A stretch of 64,000 bases of DNA, taken from Cirrosporium novae-zelandiae. Its lineage: Eukaryota. The position numbers were made by a program, and so were the translations under genes. Below the pieces are notes generated by a model. It was not told the origin of the DNA, made no database searches, and saw only the letters and a program-made list of their open reading frames with translations. Positions 11,790 to 31,468 of the stretch are shown piece after piece (within the stretch, counting starts at the first letter, position 1; each line of letters begins with the position of its first letter). Where the stretch lies: assembly GCA_026023565.1 (NCBI GenBank), contig JAPETS010000006.1, positions 620,001-684,000 on the forward strand, read 5' to 3'.

Positions 11790-12388
11790 GATAGATCTTC
11801 AAGGACGATCCTTTCTGCAAGTCAACTCTTGATGCCCCAGGATCATTTATTGATCAAGCACACCAAAGCACATGTTGAAAAATTCAAAGCGTCAGAGATA
11901 TTTAAAGGGATTAATCCGAAATTGGAACATCTCTGGTCCCCCTATGGCCCTTCTCGGCCCCTCTTAGCCCCTAAGGCAATTGGGTTATAAGACCAAGGTT
12001 TAACACATAAAGTGGAGCAAACCGACGAATATTCATTTCTGATTGGTTGGTAAGCTGAGCTCTCTCACCCAGCCCTCTCATTTTGCCTCTGCCGGACAGC
12101 ACATCACCCATCGCAACCATTTACCTCTTTCCTATCCACCATTTTTCTCTTCATTCACCCCGTTGTACCGCGATCCGTTCATACGCGGTGACATGTCCAT
12201 CGGGAATTTATGACTTTACGAATTCGCTTGATACCCATTTCATCTTTGTCATGATTTGTGGACGCTGCACAGCAGGCGCTAATTTTTCTCGAGAATATTA
12301 ATCTAATCCTCGATCACAACATCATCCGACTGGACAACCGCCTATCGAAATCCATCAACATTGCCCTTGAGCTCGATCCTACTCCGCC

Positions 12389-15300
12389 ATGTGGAAGAGC
12401 TTCATTGGCAGGTCAAGCGATAGACCTGAAGAATCACCATCATCCAAAGCCGGTCGGCGCAGGGATAGCGAACATCACTCTTTCACGAGAGGCTCCGAAT
12501 CAACGACCTCAACTAGGAAATCATCACGGGGTGACGACCGTGGTAAAGGTTTCCAACCTAGGTCCACCAGCTATTCATCAACATCTAAAAGCCGACCTGG
12601 TGCTTCAGCTCCTTCCATCGCTTCCAGCTACATGACCACTGGCTCCCTCCATGATACGGACATAAATACTGCACCTAACATTGTGAGGAACCCTAGCGAG
12701 GTCGATAGATTACCTCAATCATCAAGTAAACGCGATGATAGACCAAGGGACACAGACCGTGAAAGCCAAAGCTCGAGGAGGAGAGATAGGTCCTCGAGCC
12801 GGGAGCGAATGCGCGATTGGCGCGATGATAGGGACGAGGATAAGCGTGACAAGAGAGACAAGAGCTATAGGAGAGATAGGGAACGAGAAAAAGAACGCGA
12901 CAGGGACCGTCCTACATCAAAGGGGTCCATGGACAGATATATAGAATATGGCGATGGGGCTATCAGAGCTGCTGATGGGAATGGCAGGCCAAGTACTGGG
13001 TACAGCTCATCTAGTCTTACCCAACCTCCTGGACAATACGATGGTGGGTTATACGAGTCATCGTCCAGGCTGTCACAACCCTCCGCTCGTTTCTCACCAC
13101 GTATCGAAGACCAATTCCCTGGCCAATTCCCTCCGTCACCCGCAGAACTTTACCTTCCACTGGCAGAAAATGGATCAAGCCACGGTGAAGCTTCCAATTA
13201 TTACGGTGATCATGGACAATCTGTCTATGACCAACCAGGCGTTAGACCTCAACCCCCATCTCTAATTATTGGTGCCGAACCTCATCTTTTACCCGCTTCA
13301 GCAGTCCCAAATCCTCCTGTAGAACCGTCCGCCCAAGGGAATGTCGGGGCCGCGGCCTCTTACTTCCAAGAAGGGGAATCTGAGTCTGCACTATCCGAAA
13401 CCCCTTCACGACCAAACGGCAAGTATTCCAGGCCCGACAAGACAAGTAAGCCCATAAAACAAGGTAAACAGAATGGTTCATATAATGATGCTTGGATGTC
13501 GGGAGGGGTGACTTTTGATACATCTATGACTTCGAGTAGTTACGATGCTTCATCTAGGCCAGACTATGTAAGCAATGGTGCCAGTTATCAACAAAGACCA
13601 CCATCGTCATCAAATGGACATACCCACCACCACTCGGCTCCAGTGGTTCCCACTCTAGGTGCTGCGGCTGCAGGGGCTGCCGTCGGCCACTACGTCGGCC
13701 ACCAATCCTCCCACCAAGAGACCGCGCATCATCATTCACATTCTTATTCGAGTACCTATGAACCCCAATATACTTCTGATCCGCTTGAACAATATCAAAG
13801 CGATGGACGTCTGTCTAAACCAAACGGCCAACCTTCAAGTTCTAATGCTTCGCTTTATGTAACAGGTGCAACAGGTTTAGGAGCAGCAGCATACCAACAT
13901 CATCATAATCATCATCATTCAGCTGACAACATATATGGTGAAGGTTATTCACAAATGGCCTATCAACCTCAGCACCGTGGCCCGTTGGATAAATTGCTTG
14001 ACTTGATCCAAGACAAAGATGGCGTCGCTCAAATGGAAGAATACACCGAGTATATTGGAGTCTGTAAGGATTGCTTTGAGCCGGGCACAACCGCTAGAGA
14101 TGCTCCACGGAAGCATCATTATCAAAAGCGACGTTCTTATGAGAGGTTCGGGAGTAGCTCTCGTATCGATAAAGAATCTCGCTATACGTCTTCAGATAGT
14201 GAGGCCCGGCGGAAGAGAAAGACATCCTGGCTTGCAGGCGCCGGTCTGGCTAAACTCAGGAAAGGTTTATTCAGCAGCAACAGAGATCGCGATTCATCCT
14301 CCGACTCTGTGAGTATTCGGAAACGACGATTTAACGAGTCAAGAGGTTCATTTTCTGGTCGGGATACTTACAGACATTATGACCAGGGTAGTGTTACATC
14401 TCGGGGCGTTGCTGAAAGACATCGAAGTCGATCGCGCGGGTTGTCAGAAGCCACAACTCGAGAAAGAAGAATTTATAAAAAGGTTACACATGCTGGTAAA
14501 ACAACCATCTTTGAAGTTCCAAGACACTCTGGTTCACGTTCTAGATCTCGATCTCGATCTCGTCATCATGGTTCAGTGAAAGATGCTGCCCTTGGCTCTG
14601 TTATCGGCTCTGCTGTAGCATCGTCTGTTAGATCTACGCGCCATCGAGGTGGTTCACCGAAGAAGAGTTATGCACTTGTTGGTCGGAGAAGTCGAGAGAG
14701 CAGCTCTCGAGAACGAAGCCCAAGTTTAGCAGATATTCTCGGGTTGACAGAGGCTGGTAGGCGTCGCATGCGCAGATCTCCGTCTCCGCCGAGACCATCT
14801 CATTCTCGTGTTTCTTCTGGTGCCAGTGGCTTTGCAAGCTTTTTTACCGCACCATCAATGGGCCGAAAGTCACACTCGAAGAAGAAATCCAAATCTGGAT
14901 TTTTCAGCTTTTCAAATGCTTCTTCATCCTCATCCTCTGATGCCGATCTTGCATTCGGGTCTGAGTCCGATCATAGCCGCAAGAGCTCCAAGCGCAGAAA
15001 GATCATTAAAAAGCGTCGATCGACAGATTCTGCCATTCTAGGTCTTGGGGCCGGTTTAGCAGCTGCACTGGCGGCTGGCGAAAACCGAAAGGGAAAGCGG
15101 ATATCCGATATATACGTACCAAAATCTCGTGGAAAAAAGAAGGGAAAGCATGAGCGGAACAAAAAATCTCGACGAGGTTCATCTTCATCTTCAGCAGCCG
15201 ATGATGATGCATGGGAGTCTGCTACCGAAGGGCATGACTCTTCCGATGTTAGCTCTGGACTTGCTTATGGTGGAGCTGCTAGGAAGAGCCAAGATTCGCT

Positions 15301-18300
15301 AGTATCTGACGGTTCAGGAACGAACAAATGGGGATGGACATGGGGTTCTAAAAAGAAGAAGCGGTCAACTACTCCACCTAAACTCGTCGAAGACTTTAGT
15401 CATGTAGGAGAAGCTTCTACCACTGGCACTGCGGCCGGTATAACCCTTGTGTCGAACGAGAGTAGGGATGTTGCTGGAAGCAGTACTAGCAGCTTGCCGC
15501 CTCTTCAGCGGGTATACCCAATTGCCACGTCAGATCCGTCAAGGTTCGACGTAACTAAACAGCCAACACGCTCTTCGAACTCCCCCATCATGACGTCGAG
15601 ACCAGCTCCAATTCCACTCCAACAACCAAGGCCAATTGCCCCCGTGTCTCCCAATGTATACACTACCCAAGCGTCATACCCGCATTCCTATACTGCTCCT
15701 ACGGGAACCTCTTCATCCTCCAATGCTACACGCGTTACTCGCAGTCGAACCGATAGTTTTGAACGTTATAAGGTCGTTGACTCTCAATCTCAGGCTTCAT
15801 TTAATTCTAGGTTCCCGCCGGTAGATGTAGCAAAATCTACAGCTAGCGAAGAATTTAAAGATGGATACCCTCTGGTGGGATACTCCTCTATTGAAGTCCG
15901 ACGGGCAGCAATAGATGATGATTTTAGAGGCAAGAGCCATCGACAAACCTCGTTCGATGAAAGATTTCCTCCGGTTTCTGGAACATCATCTACGGCCAGC
16001 GAGGCATTTAGAGAAAAGTTCCCTCCAATCGAGCTGGTAGAACATACTGTTAAAGAGGATTCAAGAAATAATAACCGCCAACCGCGCCAAGATTCCTCGC
16101 CAGCCTTGGGAAAGAAGGACAGACCACCAAGCCCAATAGCCTCGAGGCCGCGGGCATCAACACGTGACAGAGCTTCGAATATCAGTTTTAATATTCCTAA
16201 GGAGGTCGAAGATAAGGAACGATTTGACAAGTACCGTCGCCAAAAGGAAGAAATTGAGCTTCACGAAAAATATGTTCGGGAACAAGAGGAGGCCGCAATT
16301 CGTGCCCAAGTCGAAAAACAGCTGCGGGAGGCAAAGAAGAAATCGGAAGAGGAGAAAAGGCGTTCCGAGCTAGAAAGAAGTGACCGAAAGTCTGCCATAT
16401 CAAAGCGTGATGACGAAGTAGAAGAAGAAGAACGTAGGCGTGTTGCTATACGAAAGTATGAAGAGGAAAAATCATCTAAGCAGTCTACCAGCTCTCGTAT
16501 TGAGCCCTTTGTGGCAGCAGCAGCTGTTGGTGCTATCGCGGGCTCTGTCTTATCCCAAAAGTCGAAGTCAGATGAGCGACGGGAGCGAAGACGTGAAGAA
16601 CGTCGAGCTGAAGTAGAGTCTGACATATCTAGGAAGCCAAGTAACGTTCCAGATGATCGACGTGAACGCCGACGAGAAGAACATCGAGTTGCAGCAGAAT
16701 CTGAAATTTCCAGGAAGACAAGCAGTGTTATAGATGATCGGCGTGAACGGAGACGAGAAGAACGTCGTGCCGAGAAAGCATCTGAAAGTTTTCAACTTAA
16801 AGATGAAGATAAGGAAAGTAAAGAAAAAATATCTGAGCGGAAATCTTCGGCATCGTCGATAGTCTCTCGTCAAGACAGCGTACAGAAAAAGCTAGAACGT
16901 CAGGATTCTCGAAAAGATACTAAAAAAACAGATCCTACTGTAGGATGGTCCGAAAGATCCGCAAAAGATCATGAGCGCGAGCGTGAACCGAGAGATGACT
17001 TCGCAGAGAGTGACAAGCAAGCTAGGATTGCTAGAAAGGTTGCAGAGAAGATTGCGGCCAAGCAGGAGCATCAAGAACATGATGATTCTGGCAGTTACTT
17101 TACCCCACCAGATATTACTGAAAGTGCTAGGTCTGAAGACATCCCTTTCCCTGAGGCTAATAACATAACTCCGTACCACGTCCCTGAGATCAAGCTTGAT
17201 GATTTTGGCTCTAATCCCTCAGGTCATTCCCATGATTATCCAACGAGCAGTGCAGATGCAGCAAAGGCACATTTGCTGAGGAACATTCCTCGTTTGAACG
17301 TGATTGAGCCTACGCCACCTGTTAGTGTCTCTAGTTCTATTAGAGGGGATTCTTCTCCGGACATGCCAGGAGTAGAAATTATACCTGCTCGACCTGAAAC
17401 GAACCAGCGACAATCCTCCGGATCTAAAGTTACCTGGGGTGAATCTGAGACAAGAGAATTCACGGTTGCAAGCCCAGAGTCCTCTCACGAAGAGTTTATC
17501 AGTACGACTGAATTAAATAAGCATACTCGTTCTATAGTAAAATCTGAAGCGGAGAAGCAACAAACCCAATACGTAGAAAAGCAATCGGAAAAGCAGCCAG
17601 AACGACCATTGGAAAACATACCAAAGCAACCACTGGAAAGTATGCCCGAGAGAGAATTAGAAAAGGGGATAGAGAAGCAATCGGAAAAGAAACGAGAGCG
17701 GCCATTGGAAAGGATGCCAGAACGACCACTGGAAAAGCAGCCAGGCAATGAACCGCCACGGCAATCTTCAAGGGAAATGGAGAAGCGACTTGACCAGCGA
17801 TCAGAACAACGCTCGGAAGATCTATGGGAGAAAGAATGGGAAATACAAGCAGACAATCAGTCGCGGAAGCCGCCAAACCGACGTTCAGAAGGGCCCCTAC
17901 TTGAGAGGTCAGGAAGAGTTAGTTCTTCTCACATGAAGGAGAAAAAGTATGTGGGGCCGAAAGAAGTCAAAGCTCCAACTATGCCTGGTAGCTTTGGTGA
18001 TGATCTAGAATTTGCCGCAATTGTAGCTGCTGGACTTGAAGACACGGGATTTGACCCTAAGATTGTAACTGAAGATCCTGCTTTCTTCCGACGCGACTCA
18101 CCCCCTGGCTCTGAAGTATCTGGAATGTACCGCAAACCGTTTTATGAATCTGTGCCCGATGTTCATTCTTTACCGCTATCCTCTGCAATCATTCCCCCTC
18201 CCAGAGGATTCATTGAGGGTGAAGTGCCAGAAACTTCCGAGGACCCAGAACCCACGTCCAAGCCAATCGTCGGTGATAATTCCCCGAGGAGATGGTCTGG

Positions 18301-21300
18301 CATCTCTCCAGATGCCCAAGTGAATATTGAACGCCCAGCCAAGTCTCAATCAAACCCTCTATCTGAGGCTCCTTCCGAGTCTAATCGCCGCGAGATTGCG
18401 TCTGACAATAAAGAAAATTACAAAAGTTCATTGCAAGGCCAGTCCACTGCTGTTAGTGAAATTGGTCGCACTTCCATTACAGAACGCCACAGTGTTTCGG
18501 ATGAACATCCTTCCCCCTTAGAGTCTCCCTCCAGTCATGATGACACGATTCCCATGGCCAAGGGTTATAGCAGAAGTCAAATCCAAAGTTTACCAAGCGC
18601 CTATTCTGATGTCCCTCATCGTTCGGATAGTGACCGCGAAGGAATACTCAGAGAGGAAGGCCATTACACTGAGGAGCCCGAGCCTATGGTTGAATTATCC
18701 CAGGAGCAACTCAAGGATCTTGTCGACTTAGAGGATCTTGGGTCTAAAGTCAAGAGCTCAAGTAAACATGAAAGCTCACAGGGTTATTCTGGATTGAAGA
18801 GAACCTCATCCTCAGGCTCTGATATGCGTAAGGACTCATATTACGATGCTCGGCCTGTAGGGAGCGACGAAGATCGTAAGGAGAAGAAAAAGAAACACAG
18901 GCACCGTAGTAGTACCTTGGGCTTGGACGATGAAGATATCCGCTCCGTGACTAGTCACCGTAGTCACCATAGCCAACATAGCCGCTCCCGCAGTCGAGTT
19001 CGTTCCCACAGTCGCGCTCGGAGTCGTGAGAGAAAACATGCCGAGAGTGACAACGATGAGAGAGAAAAGAAGAAAAAGAAGCGTCATAGTGCGGGTGATG
19101 TCCTTGACTGGGGCAGCCCAGGTGTCCGCTCGGTAGTGTCATCAGGCCCGGGCGATGATGACTCTGAGTCTAAACGAAGACAGAAACATCGATCCAAGCG
19201 AGACAGTGGAGACTTTGATACTGCCTCTGTCGTGTCTTCTCCGGCTGCTATCGATGATAGTAAGGAGAGCAAACCCAAGAAAAAGAGTCTATTAAGCCAG
19301 ATCTTCAGTGTTAGCAAGGCGAAGGAGGAGGCTACCGAAAGTAGCAGACCAAGACCTAGATCTCCCCACTCCGAGGCATCATTTGATGGGTCAGATAAGA
19401 AACACAAGAAGAGGCACCATCGACACTCCACAGGAGATGATGTGAATAGCATCCACGGTAGTGAAGCATCCCGCTCCGCTAGCAATCTATCACAGATCAG
19501 CGTTCGAGAGGACGACGACGAATCCCAGAGATTATCAAAATCGAGAAGCAAAGAAGAGAAGCGGCGGAGTCGAGAGGGTAGCATCGTAGAATCAGGTAGG
19601 ATAACCCGGGACCTGACCTCTGAGGTACCTTCACCTGTGTTTCCTACATTACCCCTAACGTTACTGGACCAGCAACTGAGCAATCAAAAGACCACAGAAG
19701 TCATCGATAAGCAGCAATCCAGGTCCCGTTCAAGGCACAAATCTATACCGGAAGGATATGAAGACAAGCCCCTGTCTTTTTTAGGGGAGCGCCCAGAAAT
19801 ACCCCCATTACCTGACGGCTCGAGGACCTTAGAGGACCCGCCAGGCCAGAGAGTAGCGCCTCCCCCATTAGAACAACCATTTACCATTGAAGAGCCACAT
19901 ACCCCGTCTCGATTATCTAATCCATTTCCACTATCCTCCACTGATGATGTTGAACGGACGCCGAAAGGTCATTCGCGCCATAATTCTGAACTATCGCAAA
20001 CGTCAGGCTTAACAAGTTCACCTACCGCTGTACCATTACACTTCCGCCGCCCACCTCGATCTCCAGCCGCTCGTCGCATTTCGTATTCATCTCCAGGATC
20101 ACCCCAAACTGATTTTGTGTATACCCCTAAATCTCGTAAAGAACGTCCTGCCTCCACTGAATTCAAAACATCCACAGAGTATCGTCCCCTTTGGCTTGTG
20201 GAGCGACATAGCTCTTCCAAAGTCCCTGAAGTTGATGAACCATATCCCCCACTTCCATCAAGCCGAGCAAGCTCCTCTACTCCGTCTTTGCCAGATGACA
20301 GTCCCGAACATCAATGGGAGGAAGCTCCAGAATTTTCATTCCCTTCATTTGAAGGGCCAGCCGCGGAGCAAGAGGCAAGCATTGTCACCATGGATGCAAT
20401 AGAACGTGGAGACGTACTAAGCTCTGGGCAGACAACGCCAACCGCCGCTAACTTTTCAACGGCTTTCCGCAGTCCAGTATCAGTCGTGGAGCCCACGCCA
20501 GCTCCAAGGTCTGATGAAGCAAATACAGCTATTGTAACGACGTCTTCAACCCCGGGGACCTCGACGGACTCCTTCCAACCTTTTCATGATGCATCGGAAG
20601 ATCTCCCAAGTGAACCAGAGGCCCAACAGTTTTCTCAAAATGTAGCAGGAACGACTCACTCTCAACCTCTTAGTCAGCCATCTTCGCCCACACAACATGA
20701 AGTATTTGAGCCTTCAATTTTAGGTGGCGCCGCTTTTGAAGTACTTGTCGATGATACGGTCAGTGGGCCGATGAAAGATTGGCCTTCAGAGGAGGACAAT
20801 ATGGCCCTAAGAGAAGCCCAAGAAATATTAACAGAGGAGGTTCCTAAAGACCGTCCAGAAAAACAGGTTCAACAATTGCCTTTAGTAAGCTTGGACCAGC
20901 GACCTGAAAATGCCGAACCGTCCGAGACTAAGCCGGATGTGGAATTTGAACCAGTTAGAGAACCCGTAAAAACTAGTGACCTGCCTGAGACCTCTCGAGA
21001 AATTCCGGCCGACCAACTTCTAGAAGCACTTTTAAAGGCTGATGCTGTAACGAAACCAGAGAATGTGTCAACAGAGGCCACTACAGTTTCGGCTAGCGAG
21101 GAGATATATGAAACTCATGAAGAAGATTATGTTGAAGTTCCAATGACTCTAAAGGAAACCAAGGAATCAAAGGCGAAAGAAGCATGCAAAACTGGTCCAG
21201 TCTTTACTGATATTCCGCCGGAGCCAAAACTGGAGCCAGATTCCACCGCTTCGGCTCCGGTTGAAGAAAGACTTGTCGAACCAGCACATACTTTAATGCC

Positions 21301-24300
21301 AGAACCTGAGGTAGTTTCCGTCGGCGCCGTCTCCACTGAGGAGGGTCCTGTCCAACCAACAGAGGGTTTAATGTTAGAAAATGTCCCAATTGAAGTAACC
21401 AAGGAATTGGAGGAACCCACTCAAGTACAAGATCCCGTAGCTTCTAGTCCATCTGGAAATGGCAAAAAACAGAAGGGCAAGAAGTCACGGAGATCTAGTT
21501 TAGCTTCTACTACAGGTTTAACCGCTGAAGCTAAAGCTGCTGCTGACACTGCTACTGAATTTTTAACCGAAGTCCCTGTTGACAAACCAGTTGACGTAGC
21601 GGCAAGAACTACAGAACTATCACCAGCTACCGAAGCCACCGCATATACAACTACAGAGGAACCACTCGTTCCAGAAACGTTCCCTCCCGAGCCTATCGAA
21701 CCACCCTCGCGCCCCGAAGAAGTTGTTGAGCCCGTCGTCTCCGAAAAACCACCTGTTTCCCTTGAACCGGCTGGAGCATCTATTGTCACCGATGTCCATT
21801 CTCTTAAAAGCGAAGAGCCTCCGGAACAAGCCGAGGGCTTAACAGGAGCGCCCTCTAAAAAGTCCAAGAAAAAGAAGAAGGGGAAGAAATCCCTCTTATT
21901 GGGTGAAGCTGGAGAGAATGTCGAAACTCCCAAGTCCGAAGTCAAATCTATTGGACTTAGTGATGAACCTGAAATCGTAGCTGGGCCTTCTAAATCCGAA
22001 TCTAAGATAACGGAACCAGATGTCGAATCAGAGCCTGTTATTACTGCTGAATCTATTAAAGCCGCTAATGACACAGCCGGGCTATCTCATCCTGAAGTCA
22101 CACGCCTTGAGACCTTTCCAGAACCAGAGCCGGCTCTACCTCTAGTACCTTCCGAAGTAGCATCTAATGTTCCGGCGCCTATTGCTCCCCCAATTATTGA
22201 ACAATCTATCGCTTCAACTACCTTGGACGAAGGGGACCCTCGAGAGCCGACGGGTACACTATCTCAAACTCCTAAGAAATCTAAAAAGAAAAGGAAGGGC
22301 CGCAATTCAGTCTCATCGGTTGAGCCACGAGAGAATATCGAGACCCCTATTGATGTGGGTCCTGAACCCACACAGCCTAAGGTTGAGGAAGATCTAGAGC
22401 AACGAACCGTTCCTACTGCGGCACCCCTTGAACCAAGTGCGGGGATTACCGAAACGGGTGTATCTACAGATCTCCAAGTCCCTATATTAGAGGTGGTTGT
22501 ACCCGAGCAGTCTGTAACAGAAGAACATGCAGCCGAAGAACCTGTACTCGAAAAGCCTACAGTCGAAGAGCCTTTGCCCGGACCCATACCTGAAGAGGTT
22601 GTACCTGAAGCGCCTACATCTAAAGAGCTCCTATCTGAAGCGCCAATATTTGAAAAGCTCGTGCCTGAAAAGCCCGTATCTGAAACGTTTATACCTGAAG
22701 TGCCTGCACCCAAGGAGCCCGTATCTGAAAATATCGTACCTGAAGAGCTCATATATGAAGCGCCTGCTCCTAAAAGGCCTGTATCTGAAGAACCCGTACA
22801 TGAAGCGCCTATATTTAAAGAATTCGTACCTGAACAGCCTGTGTCTGAAGAGCCTATACCTGAGGAGGCTATAGCTAAAGAGCCTACACCTGAACAGCAT
22901 GTATCTGAGACTCTTTTGCCCATCAATTCTACCGTAAAATCTTCAGAGGTCAAGTCTGATCCTGGATCTGCATCTCTCTTTATATCTCCAGAGGTTGCCG
23001 AACTTTCTGTACAAACAAGTACCAAGGAACCCATAACATCTGTAGCTCTAGGGGATGAACCCTCCGGAATACAAGATACCTCGTCTCCTGCTTCATCGAA
23101 GAAGTCTAAAAAGAAGAAGAAGAGTAAAACAAACACTCAGCAAGCTGATGCAAAAGTCACAGCAGAGCCTATTTTGGAACCAGCTTTGGACATTCCATCG
23201 TCCTTCGGGACTGCGGATAAGGGAGATCAACAGTCCGATATGAACGAGACCGACATGAAAAAGGTTGGTGAAGAGGTTCCAAGATCAGACCCTAGTACCT
23301 CAGTTGTTGAGGGTATTCCTGAGCATAGCCAATCACCTGTCACCGCCATTGTAACAGAGCCATTAGAAATCGCGATCAAATTACCAGAGAATATTGCGAA
23401 AGAGATAGAAGCTCCTCAAATGCCAGACGAATCTGAACCAAAACCAATTATCGATGAGTCAAAGGAAAAAGGTCCTGATCAACAAATATCTGAGCCCCTC
23501 CAAGATATCGTACAGGAGCCAATTATGGAGGCATCTAAACAACAGCCTGTCGAACAGCGTACCCCCCTTTCCCAAGAGATTTCTGCCAATCCACGAGTTG
23601 AAGAGACTAAGGAGATAATCGAAGATGATACTCAGTCTATCGCGTCAACTTCACACAAGTCCAAGAAGAAGAAAAACAAGAAGAAGAAGAAATCGATCAG
23701 CTTGGCAGGTGAAAATGACCCATCTATCCCCATGGAGGGGAAGGCCGAAGAACAACTGGTACCTGGAACCCCTAAAGCTGAGGCTGTGCTTAAAGAGATT
23801 GTTCCTGTTTCGCTAGAGCCTATAGCAACCGAGAAGCCTACCGAAGAAGACAATATCGTGGAAACACCAGCGACTGAACGTGAGGTTCTAGAGGGCATAA
23901 GTGAAACCCCTTTGCAAGTACAGCCTGTGGAGCAAGTTTCTGTTCAGTTGGAACCAGAACTAGAGCCCGTCCCTGAAGTTCCGTCCTCGAAAAAGTCAAA
24001 GAAGAAGAACAAAAAGAAGAAGCAATCTCTTGACCTTCAGACTACGGCCGAACTTGATGCTACCACATCTCCGAACGTTATCGAAAAGGGCCATACACCA
24101 GTAACTTCCGACTTTCAAGAGCGTAATATTCAAGATAAAAAGCTAGTCTCGCCTTCCACCGATTTAATAGTAGCCGGGGAATTAGCATCCACTCAAATTC
24201 TTGATCAAGCCCAAGAATTATCTCCTGCTCCCGTGGATGACTTAAGTATTGCAAATGATATCCATCAAAAGCCTGAAGCAATGGTTTTGCCAACAGAAGA

Positions 24301-27300
24301 TGAGTCAAACATTACGCTAGACACTCCTGAACCAACTTTACAGGAGCAAGAATCTACATCAGCTGAAGTGGTCTCGGAAGAAATTCCAAAGGAACATCCA
24401 GACTCATGTTTAGTACCAGAAGCTCAGGGAGGTGATCAGCCCGCCGAAGGGCCTTCTAAGAAAGACAAGCGCAAGAAGAAAAAGAAGCAAAAGGCCTCTC
24501 AGAACGAAACAGAGGAAACCCTGACAACTGAGGCTACCGCTCCGACTAAGACGCTTACTGACGTACCTCAAACTGACGCGCCTCTTGAAACCCCACTTGA
24601 AACGCTGGAGACTGTTCCCACTATTGATACAATTTCAACCGAGATACCAGTAGAAGCTGGCCCCTCTGAAACCGTACAGCCACAAACAGAGGCCGCACCC
24701 GCGGCTGAGACCAACGATGTAGACTTCCATATGGAGACGGCCATAGATTCTTCTGTGATAGAAGCAGCCTCTGAGGCCCAAACTGAAAGTGGTTTATCAC
24801 GTTCTGCATCCAAGAAAGAAAAGCGCAGGAAGAAAAAGAAGAAGCAACAAGCTGTGGAAGATGAGAACATAGGGAACCAACCCTCGCAGGAGGCCACAAC
24901 ACCAGGAACCCCAGCAGAAGAAGCTCCGGCTGAGAGGGTCGAGCCATCAATAGATGTTCCTGAACAACCCAAGATTACAAAAACAGAGCTGACATCAGAG
25001 ACACTCCAACAGATCGACACCACGAAGGAACAAACTCCGGCAGACGAGTATTATCAACATCAAATACCTACAACTCGAGCGGAAAATGGAGGGGCGGTAT
25101 CGCCGTTCAAGGAAGACAAGGACAACAAGGACTACCACCAAGCACCGCAAGAGCTTGAAGAGTCTAACCTTTCTGGTGCTGCTACACCTGTGCCTATGAC
25201 ACCGATCACAGATGCCTCATTCGACAACTTCAAGACTCCGCCTGCGACGCCCTCAGAACCAGTGATAGAGGCACCAGAACCCGGTCTCGAAGAAATAACA
25301 CCAAAAAAGTCCAAAACAGGCAAAAATATATTCTTACCTGGAACCCCTATGGATGATGAGTATCTAACAGCAGCGTCTGAGCATCCATCTGAATCTGGAG
25401 GCGAGGCTGCCGAATACTCTTTTGCTACTCCCGCTATTGAAAAAGAACCAATCCTTGGGCGACCTTCAACAGATGAACTGTCAACAGAGAGCGCGGCTGA
25501 GACGCCTGCAGCACCAGGTGAGCCGAGTCAAAACATGCTAGAGGAAGGCGATAAGAATAATTGGAGGTCTAATCTTGAAAAGAAAGCGGAACAAAGGCAG
25601 GAAAACGTTTCTCCTTCTGGGGAGGCTGGTAGTCATAAAGCTGCTACGCCTATCCCTGACGCCCCTGACTTCCCCGTCCCTCTTCCCAACGCCCCCGAGA
25701 ATCTACTTCCAAGTGCTTCCGACGAGATATTGCCAAGCCCCGAGACGGCTGGAAAGGGAATGGAAAGCATGGAGTATGGCATGGAGACTCCGAAAGCTAG
25801 GCCTGAGCTAAGGGATGTCGTGGAACGGGATATCAAATTACCACCGCTGGGGTCCTTGCCAGAGTATGGGCTCGTTAAGGCACCAGCAGATCAGCACTCA
25901 TTCGAACCTCCACCGGAGGAAAGTGGCTTGCAAACCCAAATTCCAGTTATATCACTTGACAAAATAATACCAGAGCATGTACAACAATCTGTTTCACCAA
26001 TAATTATGCCTGATGACCATGTATCTACCGAATCAATTTCCTCTCCTGAAAATGCCAAGGATTTAGTTGATGATCTCAAGTCAAAGTCTCCCGTTCTTGA
26101 GCCGGATGTTGAAGCTTGCTTTCCTACCCCTGTTGATATTGAGGCCCATAACGAGGCAATGGCAGTATCGAAGGATGCTGGGCATAATAAAGTTGCCTTA
26201 GAGTCCGCCGACAAAAAACACAGCCTTATTGAAGAATACCACCTCCCATATAATGTTGACCCTATGAGGCTGCTGTCACCTACTAACAATGACAGTGAGC
26301 GTAAGCAAGATATTAAATCAGGACCAAGATATATGACTGATCCGTCTGCTACTGGGGCTCCACAAACTGGGTTTGAAGCAATGGCTCAAGAACACCAGCA
26401 AAGTGCTCTTTTACATGGAGTTGAGTCTGGCCATATTGCAAGCAAAATATCCCCTACCACGGATATAGCGATGGATGAGTCTCACGTAGAGAATAAACAA
26501 CCTACCCCAGCCCAAGAACTGTCATTGATGCCAGTCCAGACTGCGGCCCCGTTCCTCGTCTCTAGATTTGGGTTCGGCGATAAAGAGTCTGTCTCTAATA
26601 AGCCATTTGAACCAATACAAAAACCTACTGAAGAGTCGGTGATGATTTCTCCTGGAATAGAAACGCTACCTGAGGCACAAGGTTCCAAAAATAAGCATAA
26701 CGAAGAGGCTGAATCCTCTTCCATGACAGCCAAGCAGAAAAAGCACAAGAGGACCAAAACGAAGGTTACTAAAGCTGCTTTCCCAGAAGGTGAAATAAAA
26801 GAAGTTGCTCCACCCAAGTCTATAGACGTCGATATGCAAGAGATACCCAGCGAAAGACCTATCATTGCTAAAATTAAAGTTCCCGAAATTGAGCAATCCA
26901 TTGAAACTGTTTCGACACCTTTGATGCCTCCATCTGAACCAATGTTACTAGAGTCCTCACCTCCAGAAAGCATCCCAACGTTGAGTGAAGCCGCTACTGT
27001 CGTCGAAGAGCCTTCCAAGCAAATAAGCAAAGGCCAAAGACGAAGAAAATCGGTTGATGAAGCTACGGAAAATGCTAAAAAAATAACAATTAGTATTTCG
27101 AGCCCAGCCACTGAAGCTACTGTGGACGATGAACGGACAGCGGTTAATAAGATTTCGAAAAAGTCAAAGAGAGGCAAGAAGGACAAGAGGGCAAAACAAG
27201 AAGAGTCCCTGCATCAAGGGTCTTCAAAACAGAGTAAAAAGGAACTAGAGATCTTGGAGGAGGACATGAATTCGAAGGCTAAGCGATTTGAGGCATTCAT

Positions 27301-30300
27301 AGATGAGGCAAAAAGTGAAGTGATTAAAAGGACAGGGAGTTCAGAAGTGATGAGAAACTTGGAGTTGCTGGAAGTAGAGATGCAAATGGAAGATGCAAAA
27401 CAGAAAGACCTTAGGAGGAGGCGGAGTGGGGAAGTAATGCGGCGGCTGGAGCTATTAGAAGCAGAAATATCAGATGAGTTCACTCCTGATGGGGACGATG
27501 ACGAAGTCAAATTTTGGGACGACGCGTACGAGGCACTTTCTTTGCCAGATATCGAACAGATACCTCTGTTAGATGACCCTGCACCGACTGATGACACTGC
27601 GGAAATTGCCTCTAGGGAGATGGATGGGGAGACTGTCCTGGGCACCCCCTCTGATAAAAAGCAGAAGAAAGATAAAAAGGATGAAAAGTCAAAAGGCAAA
27701 AGTATTCTTATCGAGTCCCAACCTTCTACTTCTGAACCATCACGGGTCGGGTTCGAATCAACAACACCAGAAACACTCCTCAGTACAGTGCCGGCAGACA
27801 AGCAACAGAGCCACACCAAAGAGTTGCCTGAAATGTCACAAAGAGAAGGGATAGCAAGTGCCATCCCATTTAAAGAATTTTCCCATCTGCGAACAAGCGA
27901 AAAGAAGCCACCCTTACCTAAGACCGCTTTGCAAGAAGTGGCTGCCCCAGAGGTTTCTAGGGAACCTGAATCTATGGAATGGACACGACAATATCACGAG
28001 AAACCAAATATTGTTCGAAAACTGTCTCCTATGGGCTTATTGATGGCCGGGAAAACGGGGAAAACGAATTCGCCAATCGCAAAAAGGGTTTCGTGGGATG
28101 GTCCTCCCCCACCCAAACAACCAAAGGATGAGAGTTCTACAAAGATATCTCCAAGTACTGAAGAAAAAGTCGTCGATCCGACGGAAGCAGGTAAAGAATT
28201 TGGCGTTGCATCATTCAGGGCTGCTATTGCTGAGGAGGCCTTGAGGGGGAAGAGTTCTTGGAATTCACAAAAGAGACATTATCAGTTAAATGAAGACGAG
28301 AGGAAGGAGGTAGTTGAAGCGCCACCTACCGTTTGCGACCACCTACCAGTCGAATCCACAATTGCTGGTAGGGAAATACTATCCCAACGCCCCGATGATC
28401 ACTCCGATGCCGTATTAGCAGAGAATCTAGGCGACGCGGTTGCTAGCAAGTCGCCCCCTTTGTCCTATGACCTACAAATCCGTGAATCTGTCCGTGATAG
28501 TTCAGACAAGTCAAGTTCAACGCTTCCTCACGATATAAAAATTCCTAGTTCTACTGATACCGAAGGCAATTCAACCAATACATTAAAAATCTCCGTCGAA
28601 CACGATCCGGCTTACAAGGTATCGGTCTCACATGATAATCAGCGCACCCTTGACGATACTGTACAATCTTCAGAAATTCAGTCCGTACCATATGTTGAAC
28701 CAACTGAAGTTTCTACTCCACATTCCCATGACCGAGAGGCCCGTATTCAGCGACAAGCTAGTCCGACTGGGTCTATTGAAGAGATCCAACTACCTTTTTC
28801 ACCTGTTGACTCAACTTCTAGACCGAGCTTCTCACAGGAGTTATTTGGATCTTCGCCGTCAACCAGAGAGAAAGCTTTAGGGGAAGGTACCTCAGAGCTA
28901 GATATTAGTCGACCCCGAGAGGTAGAAAATGTCGATGACAGCTCCAAACTAGAAGAAATCCGCTCGCCTTCGATTACAGATGAGCAATCATTTCCAGACT
29001 GGACTTCACTCCCACCACCTCGAACGAGCCTATTCGGAGGGCCCGTGATAACTGATGCTGGATCCCCAATACTCGCTGCCATGTCCCCAAAGACGCAGCT
29101 AAGTGATATAGTTTCTCCAAGGAGACGGCTCAATACAATCACAGAAACAAGTCCTGAAGAAAGCCCTACCAAACCGATCAACGAAGGTGGTGATGGAAAA
29201 TCGGCCGGGCGTAGCCTCCACAGAGTCAAGTCAACGCACAATAGCTTGAGATCGCTGAAGACAGTCTATGATCTACCACCAGCGGAGCTAGATGCGACAT
29301 TAGCAGATGATTCGATTCCCAGACTATCATCTCCAGGCATAGAGGAGCGGAGGTCAGATCGTTCCTTTGCGCAGCATGAGGCCAGAGTCAATCTCGAAAG
29401 TGAATTTCGGTCTCTGAGTCGTCAAAGTCATCGATCGGAAGAGCATCTATCGGAAAAGGGATATAAACGTCCTGATAGTGTGCTCAGCAACGAGTCGCAT
29501 CATTCTCGACGCTCAATTCAATCTCAGCTCTCTCAGCTCTCTCAGCACTCCCAGCACTCCCAGCACCCTTCTGAAACACCGTCATTGCGTCGCGTGGATC
29601 GGAGTTTAAGCGGAGACCTCCGATCGACCAATCAGGCCCAACAGGCCAAGCAAAACAAACAAACTAAAGTTCTCGCTAAATCTCGGGAAGTTCTAACTCA
29701 AGAGACGCAATTTGAACCGGTTGCTTCTTCGTCCACCTACGACCCTCTTAAAGACAAGGGCAAAGGCCGTGTCAAAGACATGGCTGATGTCTATGTAAGT
29801 TGAAAATCTCTACGCTATTTGATCTAGTCAATAGTTATCGCTAATACTTGGTTCTTCAAGGAGGGATGGGGTGATGACGCCGGCTCCCCACTTTCGCCGT
29901 CGCGACCACCCAGTATGCGACGTCGGCAAAGTTTACAAATATTAGACTTGGAACAGAAACTCGAACGACTCGCTTCTGAGAACCGTCTTCTCACTGATAC
30001 AAAATCTAAAATTCATAAACGTTTAGAGGATATCTCAAGCGCCCGCAGCCAAGATGCAAACACCACCGCAGCAGCCCTTCAAGCGCGCGACTTGGCCCTC
30101 AAACAGAAGGACTCGGAGATAAGTGAAATGAGAAAGACCTTAGAATCGCTACGGAAAGAAGTCACGCGATTAAAGGAAGTCAACGAGGATCTGAACACAA
30201 CAAATGCTAGCCTTAAGTCGGGTAATGATCGCACATTGGGCGAATTGAAGGTGGAAGGTACACATGCGGAACAGAAATGGCAAAAAGCTACTCAGGAATT

Positions 30301-31468
30301 GGAGGACCTTAGAGTACAGCACAATAAGCTCTCGAGTGGCATGGAAGAGATTGTCCGTCACGAGATCAGCGTCGCACTCGAAGCCAAAGAATCAGAGCTA
30401 CGACTCTTACGTAATGAACTCGAGATCGCCAAAGAACAAATACACACCCTGCAGGCCCAAATACTTGCCCAGAAAAATGACGATATTCTAGTTATTCGGA
30501 ATGAAGACTACTTCGAGAGTGCATGCACGAAGCTTTGTCAACATGTTCAACAGTGGGTGCTTAGATTCTCTAAGTTCTCAGACAATCGGAAATGCAAGCT
30601 GCTTAGTGAAATTGGCGATGAGAAGGTGGCTGACCGATTTGACAATGCTATTTTGGATGGGTCAGACGTCGATTCATATCTTTCGGATCGTGTCAAGCGA
30701 CGAGATGTTTTCATGTCTGTGGCCATGTCAATGGTTTGGGAATACATTTTCACGCGGTATCTATTTGGCATGGATCGAGAGCAGCGCCAAAAGCTCAAGT
30801 CGCTGGAGAAGAACCTCACCGAAGTTGGTCCAATAACTGCTGTCCACAAGTGGCGAGCAACAACCCTGACGCTTCTTGGTAAGAGGAAGGCCTTTCAAGA
30901 GCAGCGCGCATCAGACACGGAGGCTGTTGTTCAAGAAATTTATCATACTTTGTCAATCTTCTTGCCACCCCCAAACAACCTCCAACATCAGATACTGGAC
31001 TCCCTTCGCAAGGTTATGAGGCTCTCAGTTGCTCTATCGATCGAGATGCGAACACAGAGGGCAGAATACATAATGCTGCCACCCCTTCAACCAGAGTTTG
31101 ATACAAATGGAGATTTGGCGCGAAAAGTGTACTTTAATGCTTCGCTGATGAACGAGCGCAGCGGGACTACTACTTCCAACGAAGAACTCGAGAAGCAAAA
31201 GGCTATTGTGAGAATGGTGCTGTTCCCTCTGGTGGTTAAAAAGGGGAATGATCATGGAGTCGGGGAAGAAGAAGTTGTGGTTTGTCCGGCACAGGTGCTT
31301 GTGGCAAAACCAGGAAAGGAGAAGAAAGTTGTAAGGGTAGTGAGTGGGGATAGGATGTCATTGGATCACGGGACTAGGTCAGGGGTGTCCTTTGATCACG
31401 GGAATCGGTCGGTATCAAGCATCGCTCCAACAACCCTGGACCAAAGCACGCTAGGGAACATGATATAG
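12389..31468 (+). CDS. lah: Leashin (Lah), giant Woronin-body septal tether, often annotated 'involucrin repeat protein'; exons 12389-29794 and 29861-31468, 6337 aa if only this intron is removed
   Basis: The 5804-aa ORF joins in frame to the 517-aa ORF by intron 29795-29860 (GTAAGT...CTAAT...AAG). Architecture matches Aspergillus Lah: N-terminal region with EYIGVCKDCFEPG...DAPRKH, a huge disordered E/P-rich middle with periodic poly-Lys tracts, and a C-terminal coiled coil plus EDYFESAC..LCQHVQQWVLRFSK...VVVCPAQVLV domain. Confidence 0.88.
17551..17820 (+). repeat. Coding 12-nt (4-aa) degenerate tandem repeat in lah (EKQS/EKQP/ERPL/ERMP)
   Basis: EKQSEKQPERPLENIPKQPLESMPERELEKGIEKQSEKKRERPLERMPERPLEKQP. 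Confidence 0.75.
22502..22909 (+). repeat. Coding 15-nt (5-aa) minisatellite in lah, ~27 degenerate units (consensus cctgaagagcctgta; P/S-E-x-P-V)
   Basis: cctgaagaggttgta cctgaagcgcctaca tctaaagagctccta tctgaagcgccaata ... cctgaacagcatgta, with a strict 15-nt register from 22589. Confidence 0.9.

Follow-up and report, generated by a model that had tools for sequence, protein, structure and literature searches.

Leashin (Lah) proteins bind Woronin bodies with their N-terminus and are positioned with their C-terminus at the septal-pore rim (PMC2690989, PMC5345055); the C-terminal part combines a coiled coil with a membrane-spanning region (Leonhardt et al. 2017, PMC5345055). In Neurospora the locus is divided into lah-1 and lah-2 (PMC2690989). 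For this locus, the text of Ng et al. (2009, PMC2690989) reports seven new introns found by reverse transcription polymerase chain reaction (RT-PCR), six of them in frame with the predicted exons, and an intron 10 that opens a new frame, a 2607-bp exon ending LAH-1. Hidden in-frame introns and termination determined by splicing are, on that account, already known for lah (PMC2690989). Here we analysed the single-gene leashin of Cirrosporium novae-zelandiae (class Xylobotryomycetes in the NCBI taxonomy) within a stretch of 64,000 nt, hereafter the window (contig JAPETS010000006.1 of assembly GCA_026023565.1, positions 620,001 to 684,000 of the forward strand), and in particular a region of 237 bp (19596-19832) which lies inside a coding exon of 17.4 kb and carries several splice-like motifs.

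A preliminary description of the window had proposed that two donor-like sites (D1 and D2), a CTAAC branch-point motif and two acceptor-like sites (A1 and A2, Table 1) form a hidden splice switch, which through D1-A1 or D2-A2 could yield an N-terminal-only Lah protein. We favour another reading. The 237-bp region would be coding sequence of a conserved leashin island, D1 and A2 would be side effects of its codons with no switch to an N-terminal-only product, and the stretch from D2 across CTAAC to A1 would be the local, stop-free in-frame version of a segment that opens with a Val codon after ...DLxx[K/Q/E]. Among lichen-forming relatives, two clades or more would have to remove this segment as a short intron, and most others would translate it. 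In Cirrosporium it would be mostly translated, with at most minor in-frame splicing that leaves Lah shorter by 16 residues; we put the probability that practically every Cirrosporium transcript is read through the segment at roughly 0.55. What is new is modest: a segment on the borderline between exon and intron at a fixed leashin site, with an in-frame form in Cirrosporium.

The leashin gene and its conserved island

The stop-free frame that holds all splice-like motifs runs from 12371 to 29803 in the list of open reading frames (ORFs) of the window. Its translation is identical over 5802 residues to P0003, a 'MAG hypothetical protein' of 6337 amino acids annotated for C. novae-zelandiae, whose annotation reads straight across 19596-19832. 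With residues 1-700 as a query, 98 proteins of 3517-7269 amino acids were retrieved, mostly from lichen-forming fungi, while a query of residues 2200-2700 matched only the window's own protein. Among the 98 matches were Aspergillus 'involucrin repeat proteins' (best Aspergillus E value 6e-77; A. fumigatus P0093, 1.4e-63), which we take to be the studied Lah proteins. The matches identify the gene as a predicted leashin orthologue and hence Woronin-body tether. The leashin identity given in the preliminary description, together with its background on Lah, lah-1 and lah-2, agrees with these orthologues and with what the two papers report (PMC2690989, PMC5345055).

The motifs are all present at the positions described, and on re-derivation by hand the four splice products came out as predicted. 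Splicing from D1 to A1 would remove 77 nt and end the protein as ...ES-ATEQSKDHRSHR-TAA (stop at 19708-19710), with 12 new codons and a product of 2414 amino acids. D2-A1 would remove 48 nt, i.e., 16 sense codons in frame, and with them the peptide VPSPVFPTLPLTLLDQ; D1-A2 would remove 189 nt, also in frame; and D2-A2 would add 15 codons before a TAG at 19830-19832. The placement of the region at a boundary between a basic and an acidic part was confirmed as well, the net charge being +14 at residues 2201-2400 vs -24 at residues 2601-2800, and VPSPVFPTLPLTLLDQ, said to be hydrophobic and out of character, ranks at the 98th percentile among the 16-residue windows of the protein.

Comparison of the orthologues revealed a conserved mid-leashin island with the order KEKRRS - SGRITxDL - variable V...L-T...Q/E segment - SFLGERPExPPLPD - EYRPLWLVERH. 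Local BLAST found it in 45 of 97 orthologues and motif searches added more; the latter replaced a hidden Markov model of the region, which matched just 39 of 116 orthologues and missed the query itself. D1 falls into SGRIT and A2 into SFLG. All 66 proteins showing the two motifs, of which 61 have and 5 lack the segment, retain both SGRITxDL and SFLG as protein, and the five segment-less models cut after ...DLxx[K/Q/E], none of them using D1 or A2.

At the DNA level, we compared the window with two related taxa, represented by the loci L001 and L007 introduced below. Exact runs of 11 nt at D1 and 11-13 nt at A2 were present, but they are no longer than those at PLWLVE (14-15 nt), a control without splice motif; the runs at TEFK measure 9-12 nt, and as a background, 112 of 289 identical degenerate residues use the same codon. 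Because the control runs are equal or longer, the conservation of D1 and A2 needs no splicing, and in these two taxa we found none beyond the demands of the protein. Synonymous-site conservation, which had been put forward as a check, was consequently rejected as support for the two sites. D1 and A2 read as by-products of the S-G-R and S-F-L-G codons, not as splice sites.

The island (19550-20209), which also holds TEFK, sits exactly at the basic-to-acidic charge switch, in the supposedly non-conserved middle of leashin. It is recognisable in Xylobotryomycetes, Lecanoromycetes, Geoglossomycetes and one Dothideomycete (Sporormia); motif searches did not recognise SGRIT or SFLG in the Aspergillus proteins examined.

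We also asked how often such combinations arise by chance in an exon with 739 GT, 40 GTRNG and 7 CTAAC. A GTRNG with CTAAC and YAG in the next 45-200 nt occurs once, at D1, vs 3.5 expected from codon shuffles and 2.9 from synonymous shuffles of the exon; at least one occurrence has a probability of 0.94 and 0.91, respectively. With CTRAY as branch point, 6 combinations were observed vs 22.5 (codon) and 18.3 (synonymous) expected. The giant exon is depleted of intron-like combinations, and therefore the single surviving one at D1 needs no explanation.

These results bear directly on the proposed N-terminal-only isoform, a regulated frame shift through D1-A1 or D2-A2 that would release an untethered Lah of about 2414 amino acids from a single-gene locus. 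With CAG/GTAGGA, D1 is the better consensus donor, and both L001 and L007 match it over 11 nt; LAH-1 of Neurospora is itself ended by a frame-switching splice at intron 10 (PMC2690989), and in the frame-broken relatives described below, RNA left unspliced would carry an ORF for the N-terminal part only, about 1850-1990 amino acids long. Against this stand the 66 of 66 proteins that keep both sites as protein with no model splicing there, the equal conservation of the PLWLVE control and the missing excess over the shuffles. Moreover, D1-A1 ends after 12 unconserved codons, and by our hand-worked translation neither D1-A1 nor D2-A2 opens a long alternative frame for a functional C-terminus as in Neurospora. 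The isoform found no support in any of the comparisons, and we consider it very improbable.

Table 1. Positions of lah features and splice-like motifs in the window (slashes mark splice positions).
Feature	Position	Strand	Remarks
lah exon 1	12389..29794	+	5802 codons; open frame; translation equals first 5802 residues of P0003
SGRITRDL codons	19592..19615	+	D1 is GGT-AGG of Gly-Arg; motif in 80/125 proteins and L001-L007
D1, CAG/GTAGGA	GT at 19596	+	phase 1; read from the sequence
D2, GAG/GTACCT	GT at 19625	+	phase 0; read from the sequence
D2-A1, candidate mini-intron/exitron	19625..19672	+	48 nt; GTACCT...CTAAC...CAG; in frame, stop-free; encodes VPSPVFPTLPLTLLDQ
CTAAC branch-point consensus	19655-19659	+	13 nt before AG of A1; 1 of 7 CTAAC in exon
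A1, CAG acceptor	ends 19672	+	read from the sequence
PLSFLGERPEIPPLPD codons	19769..19816	+	A2 (TCTTTTTTAG) is TCT-TTT-TTA-G of Ser-Phe-Leu-Gly
A2, TCTTTTTTAG	ends 19784	+	read from the sequence
EYRPLWLVERH codons	20177..20209	+	conserved island motif; non-splice control for nucleotide conservation
lah intron, sole annotated	29795..29860	+	66 nt; GTAAGT...GCTAAT...AAG; internal reference for a real intron
lah exon 2, stop codon included	29861..31468	+	C-terminal part; heptad-like and hydrophobic stretches, judged by eye

The annotated intron is fixed by the P0003 junction ADVY/EGWGDD, which no other excision fits. It has AAG instead of YAG at its 3' end and GCTAAT as branch point; because it ends in AAG, non-consensus 3' splice sites are tolerated in Cirrosporium. 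Downstream of the island, the acidic proline-rich tether (21857-24850) carries lysine patches, seven in number and nearly identical to one another ((S)KKSKKKKKGKK type), at residues 3157, 3296, 3571, 3757, 3868, 4024 and 4142, a regular charge pattern with a spacing of about 110-275 residues.

The segment in related leashins

We classified 125 proteins by their SGRITxDL and SFLG motifs. The segment between them is read through in frame in 61 proteins and is exactly absent in five (models P0007, P0041, P0046, P0062 and P0096). Ten ORFs end inside the segment, three start just after it, four proteins have SGRIT without SFLG, and in the other 42, including all Aspergillus proteins, the island was not recognised. 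Close relatives differ by exactly this piece: between P0008 and P0007 (Trapelia) the 23-residue difference is the segment V...LIYPQ, with 147 of 156 flanking residues identical, and between P0047 and P0062 (Pyrenodesmia) it is the 23-residue segment V...LTNFE, with 142 of 164 identical.

Among the read-through proteins, 5 of 61 start the segment without Val (A, A, I, L, S) and hence without GT, so that in these five the segment is coding. A start of the form V[HY]xPxF/SxG is common to Lecanoromycetes and Geoglossomycetes, and length changes comprise whole codons. In the DNA compared, a recurrent L-T/I/M near the end of the segment reads CTNA[CT] and thus resembles a branch point, and the last codon is often Q or E (CAG or GAG).

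In a profile search for longer proteins, all 10 matches end 13-25 residues into the segment, 16-28 residues past SGRITxDL (e.g., ...DLPAKVYTPAFIGRTYGPQ-end and ...VHIPDFPGHGFFSVSHC-end); nine of the 10 have 1852-1986 amino acids, and six of these nine start with the Lah N-terminal motif. Three other ORFs begin 1-41 residues before SFLG/SFL[DEV]. A query of 600 residues around the region gave 18 mostly fragmentary matches, which were used for the ORF ends and starts only.

Intron-blind ORF callers divide leashin at this segment (P0106, P0109, P0114 and P0118-P0127, from metagenome and Logan ORF calls). Public collections thus hold N-terminal 'proteins' of about 1850-1990 amino acids next to C-terminal ones from an internal or alternative start beside SFLG, and such split leashin ORFs could wrongly pass for separate genes.

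A metagenome scan with the island, using an alignment of five sequences, yielded seven loci (L001-L007). L001-L006 belong to one taxon and are 99.6-100% alike, and L007 represents a second taxon, the proteins of the two being 63% identical. The frame of ...SGRITQDLPAK breaks soon after DLPAK in every one of the seven, and SFLGMRxEIPP follows in another frame. Read-through ends after 17 codons, as DLPAK then VHIPDFPGHGFFSVSDC-stop in L001 (L002-L006 near-identical) and DLPAK then VHIMIFPGRGLLIMLHC-stop in L007. On both sides of the break the frames are long, in L001-L006 as in L007: no stop interrupts the 536 codons available upstream, and downstream the frame stays open over 555 or 492 codons, with its first start codon in conserved sequence, shortly ahead of SFLG or inside that motif.

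GT-AG pairs of 40-260 nt that keep the frame open number 49 in L001 and 47 in L007. The single pair common to both taxa in which the YAG is the first AG, 9 nt after CTRAC, excises 64 nt (1609-1672). This element reads AAG/GTACAT...CTGAC or CTAAC...TAG/, and its donor lies at a Val codon aligned with D2 of the window. From this frame logic, the 64-nt element is inferred to be spliced out as an intron, and D2 is positionally homologous to the donor of this frame-restoring putative intron of the relatives.

Alternatively, the frame break might not be an intron at all: a pseudogene, a ribosomal frameshift (+1) or a split resembling lah-1/lah-2 would produce it too, and the loci would then be uninformative for the window. 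The exact excision is indeed one choice among 49 and 47 frame-keeping pairs, and metagenome ORF callers give the two halves as separate proteins. Against this, seven assemblies of two taxa all have long open frames flanking the break, some 500 codons either way, and the 64-nt GT...CTRAC...YAG bridges the break in both taxa. The downstream frame lacks a start codon until shortly before or within SFLG, eukaryotic gene models of other lineages use the same boundaries, and the frame-broken state arose at least twice. We therefore regard a non-intron origin as highly unlikely.

A FastTree of the N-terminal 650 residues, built from 82 of 83 rows (one was too gappy and was dropped) and with local support values only, requires two origins for the frame-broken state and four for the absent state. 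Across the family the segment is not a plain intron, as the 61 proteins that retain it in frame come from many lineages. Together with its intron signals, this fits either coding sequence with latent splice signals that became intronized in some lineages or an old facultative in-frame intron.

The 64-nt intron has further features of its own. Over its first 36 nt, L001 and L007 are about as alike as in the flanking exons, and its start keeps the upstream frame (VHIPDFPGH vs VHIMIFPGR); the middle 12 nt are unrelated between the taxa, and the branch-point motif of each (TGCTGAC, TGCTAAC) contains the in-frame stop.

Even in clades with a broken frame, the nine codons that follow the donor are still conserved in the upstream frame. 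Conservation of these tail codons, V[YH]xPxFxG[RH], suggests that the retained form may be translated in those clades. Taken further, the segment could be an old facultative intron at a fixed leashin site: in the frame-broken clades, splicing would give the full tether and retention an N-terminal protein of about 1850-1990 residues (from the ORF start), a choice between tethered and untethered forms, of which a 16-residue toggle would be left in Cirrosporium. We consider this scenario improbable, if somewhat less so than a truncating switch at D1 or A2.

The D2-A1 copy in Cirrosporium

By consensus matching, the segment in the window retains the signals of a fungal intron, namely a GT donor, CTRAY and a first-AG YAG, with a donor lacking G at +5. 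It has the form of an exitron, being internal to a coding exon, a multiple of three and stop-free, and it starts at the same position as the intron of the orthologues (the element of L001-L007 and the five segment-less models). Of the four splice combinations in the preliminary description, only the in-frame removal through D2-A1 gained comparative support, from the homologous donor and from the models that differ by the exact segment; D1-A1, D1-A2 and D2-A2 gained none.

D2-A1 may be a working in-frame intron, constitutive or regulated, giving Lah with and without the 16-residue VPSPVFPTLPLTLLDQ, with P0003 describing the retained form only. The donor is homologous to that of an intron that is obligatory in the relatives, 48 nt keep the frame, and the Trapelia and Pyrenodesmia models remove the homologous 23 codons. 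Because the homologous donor keeps CTAAC and CAG at canonical spacing, D2 splicing is a live option.

Several features of the segment itself speak against it. The donor consensus in fungi is GTRNGT, from which GTACCT departs at +5. With 48 nt, the segment is shorter than the annotated intron of the gene (66 nt) and the element of the relatives (64 nt). It is conserved as protein across classes and kept even where GT is lost, and protein constraint may itself account for the L-T behind CTAAC. When the DNA is aligned, the branch point of the relatives pairs with CTGAGCAAT (L-S-N), a few codons past the CTAAC of the window. The D2-A1 module is suggestive but confounded by this possible conservation of L-T. 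On balance, the working intron is a tentative alternative, clearly less probable than consistent translation of the segment.

Translation of the segment in Cirrosporium, which we favour at slightly better than even odds, has to be held against the following points. A module of CTAAC and a first-AG YAG within 40-110 nt follows just 12 of the 739 GTs of the exon (3 of 739 in frame; 58 of 739 with CTRAY), so that the arrangement at D2, where the GT of a homologous donor is followed at canonical spacing by an exact CTAAC and then, after 13 nt, by CAG, is a rare one. The composition of the 48 nt is mildly intron-like, at the 96th percentile for pyrimidines and the 6th for the codon-usage score; this pyrimidine level is reached in 34 regions of the exon, its own included. 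The donor GTACCT is weak, but GTACAT of the obligatory intron in the relatives is weak too, and its weakness is no argument against use. The read-through models were predicted, and an in-frame intron may have escaped them, as six did in the prediction of Neurospora lah (PMC2690989). Finally, the favoured reading is built on sequence and gene models for all species.

TTA, CTA and GTA were considered as rare codons that might mark non-coding DNA, and this was rejected, as all three are common in lah.

Comparison with known systems

In the literature on leashin splicing and isoforms and on fungal exitrons and intronization, we found no account of the segment site or of Lah splice variants from an unsplit lah; Ng et al. 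might place an intron at the site in their figures or supplements, which lie outside this search. The site offers a natural case on the border of exon and intron, being apparently an intron in some fungi and coding in others including Cirrosporium. More than one product from a single-gene leashin would bear on how Woronin bodies are held at the septal pore and released from it, and if the facultative-intron reading were true, the site would be a single-gene counterpart of the lah-1/lah-2 split in Neurospora. In practice, an in-frame intron can go unnoticed in the gene model of a giant open exon.

Like Lah of Aspergillus as described in PMC5345055, the Cirrosporium protein appears as one giant tether, with the Woronin-body end at its N-terminus and the septal-pore anchor at its C-terminus; the SGRIT/SFLG island, however, is not recognisable in the Aspergillus proteins examined.

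The hidden introns of Neurospora crassa lah, as far as the paper presents them (PMC2690989), are the nearest parallel: the family is the same, and short frame-neutral introns lie inside an ORF that prediction reads through. There, the introns were proven by RT-PCR and sequencing, whereas the unsplit lah is known here from its sequence. Intron 10 of the same locus corresponds to the mechanism claimed in the preliminary description, with splicing setting the end of the N-terminal leashin product. In Neurospora this end is supplied by a 2607-bp exon, in contrast to 12 codons (D1-A1) or 15 codons (D2-A2) in the window.

Beyond leashin, the segment recalls exitrons and intronization. An exitron is an alternatively spliced piece of a coding exon, and intronization turns coding sequence into an intron. 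Works on the two subjects include Catania and Lynch (2008, PMC2586383) and Talkish et al. (2019, PMC6726248). While in exitrons both isoforms are seen, the segment is a candidate read from the DNA; it shares with them the position in a coding exon, splice signals of low strength and a length divisible by three, and it would be protein in most lineages and an intron in others.

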